Below, piece by piece: positions 2,051-3,593 of a stretch of 3,593 bases of DNA (position 1 is the first letter of the stretch; each line of letters opens with the position of its first letter). This DNA comes from a virus (lineage: Duplodnaviria; Heunggongvirae; Uroviricota; Caudoviricetes). Location: positions 1 to 3,593 of the IMG/VR virus record IMGVR_UViG_2737471853_000013; one strand, written 5' to 3'. The position numbers were made by a program, and so were the translations under genes. The notes beneath the pieces are model-generated. The model saw only the letters and a list, made by a program, of their open reading frames with translations. It was not told where the DNA came from and made no database searches.

Positions 2051-2719
2051 ATGAGCGCTATAACCAAAGAACGTATCAAATTATTCATTAAAAATCCGCT
2101 TGATAACGGACTTACTCGTGGCGAACAAATGGAACTGGCACGAATTGCACTGGCATCACTGGAACGCGAACAGATTCGCCACGAGCATGCCAAATGGTCT
2201 GACTCCACATTTGGCTGCGTTGGCCCCATTGGTCCGCTGAAACATCTCTCAAAAGAGGCACTGGAAGCCGCAGCCGAACCAGACGATCTTAGCGAGTGGG
2301 CTGATATGCAGTTTCTGTTGTGGGATGCACAGCGCCGTGCTGGCATCAGCGATGCTGAAATTACCGCTGCTATGGAAGATAAATTGAAGATCAACATGGA
2401 GCGCCAGTGGCCTGAGCCAAAAGATGGTGAGCCTCGCTTGCACATTAAAGAACCCGGCAACTATCCGGTAACTCCGGATGGTTGGATAAGCTGTAGTGAG
2501 CGAATGCCAGAAATGGGAGAGCGACAATGCTATGTGTTAGCAGCTGACTTTAAAAACAACTACCCACCAAACATCCCCAACACTCAGGTCGGCGTATATG
2601 GCGACTGGTTTAATGATGGCAATCCAACTTGGGATGACGGTGATGGCGAAGACCTGTATCTCAAAGAGGTAACCCACTGGATGCCTCTACCAGAACCGCC
2701 TCGATTAAAGGAGCTATAA
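2051..2719 (+). CDS. Phage accessory protein: N-terminal MazG-like/DUF550-type predicted dATP/dGTP pyrophosphohydrolase domain fused to a C-terminal DUF551 domain (222 aa from ATG 2051)
   Basis: ATG 2051 lies 6 nt after AGGAG (2040..2044) and 1 nt after the Ea22-like stop; the longer track ORF from 2018 has no ribosome-binding site. The N-terminal half has an all-alpha, acidic-residue-rich pattern (HEHAKWSDSTFG...EALEAAAEPDDLSEWADMQFLLWDAQRR...) typical of MazG/DUF550 NTP-PPase-like phage proteins. The C-terminus ends in the DUF551 hallmark ...VTHWMPLPEPP. Domain calls are from memory of the families. Confidence 0.8.
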   Translation: MSAITKERIKLFIKNPLDNGLTRGEQMELARIALASLEREQIRHEHAKWSDSTFGCVGPIGPLKHLSKEALEAAAEPDDLSEWADMQFLLWDAQRRAGISDAEITAAMEDKLKINMERQWPEPKDGEPRLHIKEPGNYPVTPDGWISCSERMPEMGERQCYVLAADFKNNYPPNIPNTQVGVYGDWFNDGNPTWDDGDGEDLYLKEVTHWMPLPEPPRLKEL

Positions 2720-2815
2720 TAGTGAACTATTATATCTATTTGTATTAAAAGAGTTTTTATAAAATAAATCTTCCAAAGCATGTAAAAACACTGTTAATCT
2801 TAACGTGTGTGAAAC
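2720..2815 (+). promoter_or_regulatory. Very AT-rich intergenic region; candidate promoter and/or nucleoid-protein binding region for the downstream moron gene
   Basis: Hand count gives about 21% G+C over 2721..2800, against roughly 50% in flanking genes. It contains several weak sigma70-like hexamers (for example TTGTAT at 2740 and TATAAAAT at 2758) but no pair with convincing spacing, so the exact promoter is not assigned. Confidence 0.3.
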
Positions 2816-2833
2816 GTGAAGAGAGGTGTTGAA

Positions 2834-3115
2834 ATGAGCATTCATGATTTGTGTGAAGATCAAGAGCAATGGGCTATGCAGACCCTTATGGGATCAGGAG
2901 TTCTTGCAAGGTGCAGAATCCATAACGATGTAATTTTAGACAGCGGAAATGATGCTTCTTCTGCTTATAAATTAGGAACTTACCTATATCAAAAAGATAA
3001 TAGCTGCAACTTATTCAATACTCTTACTGAAGCCCGCGACGCAATAAAGGATGCATATGAATCGTATTGTGGGATCGATGATTGCCCACAATGCTCAAAA
3101 TACATTGACGATTAA
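2834..3115 (+). CDS. ea8.5: Ea8.5-like small Cys/His-rich protein (93 aa), low-GC moron gene
   Basis: ATG 2834 is preceded by AGAGGTG (2822..2828) at 5 nt; the GTG at 2816 used by the track is less likely. Size (93 aa) and position between the Ea22 region and xis match lambda ea8.5 as I recall. Cys/His pattern (C..CRIH...C...YCGIDDCPQC) fits a zinc-binding fold. Hand-counted G+C is about 39%. Confidence 0.6.
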   Translation: MSIHDLCEDQEQWAMQTLMGSGVLARCRIHNDVILDSGNDASSAYKLGTYLYQKDNSCNLFNTLTEARDAIKDAYESYCGIDDCPQCSKYIDD

Positions 3116-3135
3116 TAATATGAACAAGTAACTAT

Positions 3136-3160
3136 CCTCGCACTCGCGGGGATTTCTTTT
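3136..3160 (+). terminator. Intrinsic terminator: 6-bp stem (CCTCGC/GCGGGG, one G-U pair), ACTC tetraloop, then ATTTCTTTT
   Basis: Seen in sequence 20 nt after the Ea8.5-like stop: stem 3136..3141 pairs with 3146..3151, followed by a U-rich tract. Confidence 0.5.
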
Positions 3161-3167
3161 ATCTGAA

Positions 3168-3190
3168 CTCGCTACGGCGGGTTTTGTTTT
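3168..3190 (+). terminator. Second hairpin plus U-tract element (CTCGC/GCGGG stem, then TTTTGTTTT); tandem terminator or structured leader
   Basis: Seen in sequence: 3168..3172 pairs with 3177..3181 (one G-U pair), followed by TTTTGTTTT, immediately upstream of the GGAGA ribosome-binding site of the 55-aa sORF. Confidence 0.35.
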
Positions 3191-3203
3191 ATGGAGATGA
3201 TAA

Positions 3204-3371
3204 ATGCACTTCCGAGTCACAGGTGAATGGAATGGAGAACCATTCAACAGAGTTATCGAAGCAGAGGACATCAACGACTGCTATAACCACTGGATGATAT
3301 GGGCGCAGATAGCGCATGCAGACGTAACCAATATTCGAATTGAAGAACTGAAAGAACACCAAGCCGCCTGA
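3204..3371 (+). CDS. Small hypothetical protein, 55 aa (MHFRVTGEWNGEPFNRVIEAEDINDCYNHWMIWAQIAHADVTNIRIEELKEHQAA)
   Basis: Not in the ORF track (below the size cut-off); found by reading. ATG 3204 has GGAGA (3193..3197) 6 nt upstream. The TGA stop lies in the loop of a strong terminator hairpin. Lambda has a similarly sized unnamed ORF between xis and ea8.5 (my recall, uncertain). Confidence 0.5.
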   Translation: MHFRVTGEWNGEPFNRVIEAEDINDCYNHWMIWAQIAHADVTNIRIEELKEHQAA

Positions 3372-3386
3372 TGGCGGTTTTTTATT
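3362..3386 (+). terminator. Intrinsic terminator: 7-bp stem (AGCCGCC/GGCGGTT), TGAT loop, then a T-run
   Basis: Seen in sequence: 3362..3368 pairs with 3373..3379, loop 3369..3372 contains the sORF stop codon, followed by T-rich 3378..3387. Confidence 0.6.
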
Positions 3387-3401: not shown

Positions 3402-3593
3402 ATGACCGATACCAGCCTGATTCCTGAGAAAGAAGTGATGAACAAGCTCGGTGTTTCATCACGTCAGACAATCTGGAACTATACCAAACGGCACGGATTT
3501 CCGAAGCCAGTCAGAACCCACCCCAAATCATACCTTCGTGAGGCTGTTGAAGGGTGGATTCTTAACGGTGGCGTTAATCAGAAATGCTCCTGA
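3402..3593 (+). CDS. xis: AlpA-family excisionase / phage transcriptional regulator (Xis-like), 63 aa
   Basis: ATG 3402 has GGAGA (3391..3395) 6 nt upstream. The translation has the AlpA/Xis winged-helix pattern (LGVSSRQTIWNYTKRHGFPKPV...REAVEGWI) and the expected position at the int-proximal end of the operon. It is not lambda-type Xis. The ORF is complete, with TGA at the window end. Confidence 0.85.
   Translation: MTDTSLIPEKEVMNKLGVSSRQTIWNYTKRHGFPKPVRTHPKSYLREAVEGWILNGGVNQKCS

Follow-up and report, generated by a model that had tools for sequence, protein, structure and literature searches.

The ea8.5 gene in the 3,593-nucleotide stretch of DNA analysed here (the window) lies in what sequence comparison delimits as an exchangeable accessory cassette, at positions 2677-3201. 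The best explanation for this arrangement, to which we assign a probability of roughly 70%, is that ea8.5 is an accessory gene of the exo-xis region expressed from pL under N antitermination, that little or no transcription of it occurs in the lysogen, and that the hairpins following it, equivalents of the predicted lambda terminators t3 and t4, are part of the phage backbone. The gene, the fold of its product, the region and the terminators are already in the literature and in the PDB and are largely ordinary, and the finding is of little consequence other than for annotation. What is new is where the cassette ends relative to an empty site and how widespread the t3/t4 element is. Three points may be of use: Ea8.5 homologues occur beyond lambda (this allele in 111 of 5426 complete E. 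coli genomes), the cassette has clean boundaries relative to an 'empty site', and the t3/t4 pair is a widespread, nearly invariant junction element.

The window follows the gene order of the lambda pL operon (read leftward), and its sizeable genes are all on the + strand:
1-681, + strand: exo, YqaJ-type exonuclease
after exo in the gene order, + strand: homologues of orf60a, orf63 and orf61
1415-1636, + strand: TraR/DksA zinc-finger gene, equivalent of lambda orf73
1633-2049, + strand: Ead/Ea22-like gene
2051-2719, + strand: dATP/dGTP pyrophosphohydrolase and DUF551 gene (PF04447, E = 5.5e-42; PF04448, E = 2.9e-20)
2834-3115, + strand: 93-codon gene of the Ea8.5 family; putative zinc ligands of the product C27, H30, C84 and C87 (PDB 2M7A, PF20735, phrog_6325)
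3204-3371, + strand: orf55 homologue (55 aa), a downstream neighbour also in lambda (phrog_676, E = 2e-39)
3402-3593, + strand: AlpA-like excisionase gene, next in the operon (phrog_66, E = 1.9e-8)

DNA identity to lambda is 95.6% over positions 1-1860 and 90% over positions 3069-3386; the excisionase gene, for which the Pfam AlpA match is weak (17.8 bits; cut-off 21), shows 97% DNA identity with Stx2 phage 1717. In an E. coli prophage 99.7% identical to the window, the upstream genes on the same strand include N, ral, cIII, kil, gam, bet and exo; sieB is likewise found upstream, and xis and int follow downstream. Judged from these comparisons, the window comes from a lambdoid E. coli prophage and represents its exo-xis region, which makes up the distal portion of the leftward, delayed-early pL operon. 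According to the literature, this region is under the control of pL and of the repressor cI (PMC4195576, PMC3824215, PMC8614690), and in lysogens the pL operon is kept repressed by cI (PMC3824215, PMC7093339, PMC8614690).

Several observations concern the genes to the left of the cassette. Just upstream of the TraR-like orf73 gene, a terminator-like hairpin (1337-1355) is directly followed by TTCACC-N16-AATAAT (1370-1397), the sole + strand match to the sigma-70 consensus in the window; in position, the two correspond to a terminator (t2) and a promoter (p1) for which predictions in lambda and phi24B have been published. The Ea22-like gene is mosaic, as its homology to lambda ends at position 1860 and returns only for the last ~27 nt (2026-2052), and its product is 138 aa long versus 182 aa in lambda. 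The ATG of the DUF551 gene (2051) overlaps the stop codon of the ea22-like gene (TGATATG). PADLOC and NCBIfam gave no match for the Ea8.5, orf55 and DUF551 proteins; the ea22-like protein had no PADLOC match either, nor did the AlpA-like excisionase have one in NCBIfam.

The product of ea8.5 is identical at 93 of 93 positions to chain A of PDB entry 2M7A (E = 3.9e-62), the PDB chain having 8 extra N-terminal residues. It also matches phrog_6325 (E = 5.6e-57) and Pfam family PF20735, Lambda_ea8_5 (58.7 bits, the cut-off being 27; E = 9.2e-16; residues 8-93 aligned to positions 1-90 of the 90-position profile), and it is 40.9% identical to lambda Ea8.5 across all 93 residues. These profile and sequence comparisons confirm the likeness to Ea8.5 noticed in the preliminary description of this DNA. 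In an alignment of 69 full-length family representatives, the only invariant columns are C27, H30, C84 and C87, whereas C7, C64 and C79 are not conserved. The preliminary description had also read the Cys/His pattern as suggestive of a small zinc-binding or DNA-binding fold, and this was borne out both by the four invariant residues and by the fact that the fold of this exact protein is already solved: where PMC8614690 treats Ea8.5, it presents 2M7A as a prophage homologue of lambda Ea8.5 with a homeodomain-like/zinc-finger hybrid fold, and it cites Kwan et al. 2013, Biochemistry 52:3612, for the structure. Because the solved sequence is identical, the homeodomain-like fold can be assigned to the product of the window, a small, helical domain of this type held together by a putative Cys-His-Cys-Cys zinc site.

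As regards function, lambda ea8.5 in multicopy lowers the CII-dependent promoter paQ and, weakly, pI (PMC7093339), and yeast two-hybrid partners have been reported in a screen in which the authors rate Ea8.5 as promiscuous (PMC3224144, PMC8614690). By analogy with this 41%-identical homologue and these multicopy experiments, the product encoded in the window is most likely a regulatory binder of protein or nucleic acid, which would shift the lysis-lysogeny balance by lowering the activity of CII-dependent promoters.

The likeness to lambda extends to the organization of the locus. Lambda ea8.5 (lambda 29374-29655) also encodes 93 aa, also lies between ea22-type genes and orf55/xis in the pL operon and is also followed by the t3/t4 hairpins and orf55; the two genes have the same G+C content (38.7%) and their products the same invariant C-x2-H ... 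C-x2-C ligands. However, DNA homology between the two genes is limited to the last ~47 nt, the upstream neighbour is ea22 in lambda and the DUF551 gene in the window, and the lambda leader is unrelated, with 39% G+C compared to 27% in the window.

The family comprises 89 representative clusters in an exhaustive HMMER search, which was needed to reveal it, as a word-indexed protein search returned near-identical E. coli proteins only. Two HMMER matches of 1784 aa and 1668 aa are not homologues: these are repetitive proteins in which a short low-complexity stretch was matched. Relatives with 34-40% identity are found in other accessory slots: two in nin regions upstream of Q (L010 3001-3279; L019 866-1147), between the replication genes and Q/RusA/NinB/NinG, one beside an Ea47-like gene (L020 2501-2794) and one before an excisionase gene (L022 2501-2779). 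The family is not confined to the exo-xis region; some reviews describe Ea8.5 as exclusive to lambda, yet the allele of the window is found in 111 complete E. coli genomes. A low-G+C leader together with a hairpin and T-run after the gene was found in four of six contexts, the window and lambda being counted and nin regions included. The layout is not universal in the family: the distant nin-region homologue of L010 lacks both an AT-rich leader and a terminator beside the gene. The recurrence of the leader-gene-terminator layout hints at a semi-autonomous unit and is the best remaining argument for one, but N-antiterminated operons, too, commonly have terminators separating their accessory genes.

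To the limits of the cassette, the following two segments are relevant:
2669-2700, + strand: left recombination joint of the cassette, in the last ~30-50 nt of the DUF551 gene, coding for HWMPLPEPP (from homology breakpoints)
2701-3128, + strand: segment of 428 bp that is extra relative to the empty site of 118970_sal4 (from sequence comparison)

Among 5426 complete E. coli genomes, 111 have the cassette allele (leader and gene, at 99% identity or more), O111 and O121 STEC strains among them, and 91 of the 111 match over 80% or more of the 400-bp query. Where a prophage has flanks other than those of the window, homology sets in at positions 2669-2677, inside the HWMPLPEPP-coding end of the DUF551 gene, and in an O111 prophage it stops at position 3201, at the Shine-Dalgarno sequence of the next gene. 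About 200 genomes match only positions 2520-2700, that is, the same end of the DUF551 gene and then different sequence; in the two of them that were examined, a DUF4222 cassette follows DUF551, and the one that was read (L008) is G+C-normal and tightly packed and has no hairpins. In Salmonella phage 118970_sal4 (L023), the DUF551 gene (coding for ...HWMPLPEPPQQ*) ends with ...CCAGAACCGCCGCAGCAATAA and is at once followed by ATCCTCGTACTCGCGGGGAT..., so that t3/t4 come directly after the gene. Compared to this empty site, the extra segment of the window comprises an alternative C-terminus of the DUF551 protein (RLKEL*), the AT-rich leader, ea8.5 and a trailer of 13 nt, a difference that fits an insertion or a deletion alike, other prophages filling the slot with other cassettes.

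Decayed versions of the cassette were also found. In E. coli KSC64 (L005 3001-3234), part of a DUF2528 gene has been joined by a deletion to the middle of ea8.5, and in E. coli NC19 (L006 3001-3309) and related poultry strains, IS2 interrupts ea8.5 at a site corresponding to window position ~3029.

Three hairpins are found downstream of ea8.5:
3134-3162, + strand: t3-equivalent terminator-like hairpin and U-tract (from folding; the predicted t3-lambda of PMC4195576 Table 4)
3165-3193, + strand: t4-equivalent hairpin and U-tract, the U-tract running into the orf55 Shine-Dalgarno sequence (from folding; predicted t4-lambda)
3361-3380, + strand: t5-equivalent hairpin and U-tract, overlapping the orf55 stop codon (from folding; predicted t5-lambda)

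The t3 hairpin, ATCCTCGC-ACTC-GCGGGGAT at positions 3134-3153 followed by TTCTTTTAT, has 8 pairs and a folding energy of -12.1 kcal/mol (z = -4.3), and none of 200 shuffled sequences folds as well. The t4 hairpin (3165-3184) also has 8 pairs, with -11.0 kcal/mol (z = -3.4), and again none of 200 shuffles is as stable. Both have the form of a rho-independent terminator, i.e., a G+C-rich stem-loop and a U-tract with a stability above chance. The preliminary description had placed a clean hairpin with a U-tract 20 nt after the gene: hairpin and U-tract are real, but the gap between the stop codon (3115) and the hairpin is 18 nt, and the second hairpin, just outside position 3160 at which that description ended, was overlooked. 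In lambda's exo-xis region, t3, t4 and t5 are predicted terminators, t3 and t4 being predicted by both ARNold programs (PMC4195576 Table 4); the same sequences are found in the window (3134-3153, 3165-3184 and 3361-3380), termination being predicted in both phages. The U-tract of t3 differs by one base, TTTCTTTT in the window versus TTTATTTT in lambda. The t5 hairpin was found on the - strand too and may be a bidirectional terminator between orf55 and xis.

The element TAAC-n-ATCCTCGCACTCGCGGGGATTTCTTTTATCTGAACTCGCTACGGCGGGTTTTGTTTTATGGAG, which comprises t3 and t4, shows almost no variation among lambda, Stx2 phage 1717, the P22-like phage Kapi1, mEp213 and Salmonella phage 118970_sal4. It is almost unchanged across the seven phages and prophages compared (window 3129-3197; L001 4169-4237; L002, Stx2 phage 1717, 5410-5478; also L017, L018 and L023), and the only two stem substitutions, C-G to U.G in t3 and U.G to U-A in t4, keep the pairing. 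What precedes the element varies: the slot is occupied by a DUF4752 gene in Kapi1 and mEp213 and by the DUF551 gene itself in 118970_sal4. Overall, the ~66-nt element is present in 316 phage records; only 21 records, all of them lambda-type, encode a member of the Ea8.5 family. As the element is so much more widespread than the gene and is present at the empty site, t3/t4 belong to the backbone and are not the cassette's own terminator; the proposal of the preliminary description that a terminator forms part of an independent moron had to be given up for this reason. The t3/t4 element lies exactly at the cassette breakpoints and looks like a junction or insulator module before the xis-proximal genes. 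In the corresponding slot of Stx2 phage 1717 (L002 5294-5383), a small unannotated ORF, overlapping the DUF551 stop codon, encodes a hydrophobic peptide of ~29 aa (MPPVKVVIITLVMIVIARIMSGEIVWIW).

Upstream of the coding sequence, the cassette has the following features:
2720-2833, + strand: AT-rich untranslated leader, 114 bp, 27.2% G+C (from composition)
2705-2733, + strand: best sigma-70-like candidate, TTAAAG-N17-TATTAT, weak (from a rough -35/-10 matrix)
2821-2827, + strand: Shine-Dalgarno sequence AGAGGTG, 6 nt before the ATG at 2834 (read from the sequence)

The G+C content of positions 2720-2815 is 24.0%, and the lowest value of any 80-bp segment in the whole window, 20%, is reached at the segment starting at 2715 (z = -6.1 relative to 80-bp windows outside 2640-3200, for which the mean is 48.9%, the standard deviation 4.7% and the minimum 33.8%). 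The ea8.5 gene has 38.7% G+C and a GC3 of 0.33, compared to ~49% G+C for the rest of the window and to 46-53% G+C and a GC3 of 0.42-0.62 for its neighbour genes; elsewhere, the G+C content of 282-bp windows is never below 42.6%. The sliding-window calculation shows that the earlier hand counts, ~21% upstream and ~39% in the gene, were essentially right. Leader and gene together thus form a low-G+C segment that is presumably of foreign origin. The AGAGGTG sequence likewise agrees with the previous statement that the gene has a ribosome-binding site of its own.

A leader of this length and AT-richness is unusual in a tightly packed operon, and this one had been described as promoter-like. A sigma-70 consensus scan returned two promoter-like sites in the window, none of them within the leader (2720-2833). 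With the matrix, TTAAAG (2705)-N17-TATTAT (2728) has the top + strand score in the window, 9.6 (9.9 for the lac promoter, ~13 for pL and pR, with 13.1 for pL), a score that 37% of shuffled versions of this AT-rich segment attain; this site is not above chance for the composition of the leader. A perfect TATAAT is present at 2715-2720, with neither a usable -35 element nor a TG extension. Comparison of the regions upstream of other Ea8.5 family members gave no common promoter signal. With no consensus match and the best matrix score at chance level, the promoter-like label reflects AT-richness only. Given the perfect TATAAT and TTAAAG-N17-TATTAT, the leader may contain a weak or conditionally active promoter. 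A motif scan of the cassette found no CII, CRP, IHF, sigma-54, H-NS or boxA motif; a LexA-box near-match with one mismatch lies at 2928-2943, within the ea8.5 coding sequence. The window and the three other prophages aligned with it have the leader at 100% identity, and its conservation is therefore uninformative with regard to a promoter. Folding of 2720-2833 showed no RNA structure above shuffles on either strand (z = 0.06), and in an Rfam scan of the whole window with permissive filters, the sole hit was a microRNA family matched by chance within the leader (E = 0.14; 20.9 bits versus a gathering score of 43).

The preliminary description had proposed an independently transcribed moron expressed from the prophage. 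If the cassette were a true moron, a promoter in the leader, possibly under H-NS or stress control, would drive ea8.5 without pL, transcription would end at t3/t4, and the protein made in the lysogen would alter host physiology. We consider this unlikely. By the definition of morons and the classical examples of HK97 gene 15 and lambda lom and bor (PMC3594210), the cassette resembles a moron in being extra DNA compared to a related phage, in its deviant G+C content, in its single small gene and in the terminator after it. These likenesses are substantial: the flanks of 2701-3128 are adjacent in 118970_sal4, the composition of the segment deviates strongly, two terminator-like hairpins follow directly, the top-scoring + strand promoter-like site of the whole window lies in this segment, and relatives in nin regions and elsewhere also have a low-G+C leader and a terminator. 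In addition, the product of lambda ea8.5 was reported to be up-regulated in a stressed BL21(DE3) lysogen (PMC7791884), which partial induction would explain equally well. The moron-like insertion and its deviant composition are supported, but independent transcription is not: no site passes the consensus scan and the best matrix score is at chance level, upstream regions of the family share no promoter signal, and the terminators are not carried by the element. Classical morons, moreover, lie in a late operon, whereas the cassette, with no demonstrable promoter and a backbone terminator, lies in the early N-antiterminated accessory region, where the position and orientation of ea8.5 fit simple read-through from pL. 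A related proposal is that a weak or H-NS-silenced promoter in the leader allows Ea8.5 to be produced by the repressed prophage in certain circumstances and to act on the host (e.g., on transcription or cell division); we hold this to be quite improbable. Were it true, t3/t4 would insulate xis/int from accessory-gene promoters, the accessory slots of lambdoid early regions would be the home of lysogen-expressed cassettes with a common 'insulator' terminator module, and Ea8.5 would be a tractable lysogen-expressed regulator with a structure already known.

A different reading concerns the hairpins themselves. The t3/t4 element could be conserved mainly as a homologous 'linker' for cassette swapping, or as an RNA 3'-end or processing element, in which case its appearance as a moron terminator would be incidental. 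In agreement with this, ~66 nt are nearly invariant in lambda, Stx, P22-like E. coli and Salmonella phages while both flanks differ, the cassette breakpoints lie exactly at the edges of the element (3129 and 3201), and the left joint, too, consists of a short coding motif that is conserved. However, both hairpins are canonical, with a G+C-rich stem, a U-tract and z values of -4.3 and -3.4, the two stem substitutions preserve pairing, and both ARNold programs predict terminators at these sites in lambda (PMC4195576). The roles of terminator and linker are not mutually exclusive; we judge it very unlikely that the element serves mainly as a linker or processing site.

Expression of ea8.5 by read-through from pL, the reading that we prefer, is supported by the lambda gene order and the position of the gene in it, by the N-ral-cIII-kil-gam-bet-exo series upstream and by the lack of a convincing promoter in the leader. 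After infection or induction, N-modified RNA polymerase from pL would transcribe ea8.5 and pass t3, t4 and t5 into orf55, xis and int; in lambda, ea8.5 mRNA has been measured both after infection and after induction (PMC4195576). The product would then bias the lysis-lysogeny decision, acting as a zinc-stabilised regulatory binder as suggested by the analogy with lambda Ea8.5. In the repressed prophage, cI keeps pL off (PMC3824215), there would be little or no transcription of the gene, and any stray initiation in the AT-rich DNA would probably be stopped at t3/t4 before reaching xis and int.
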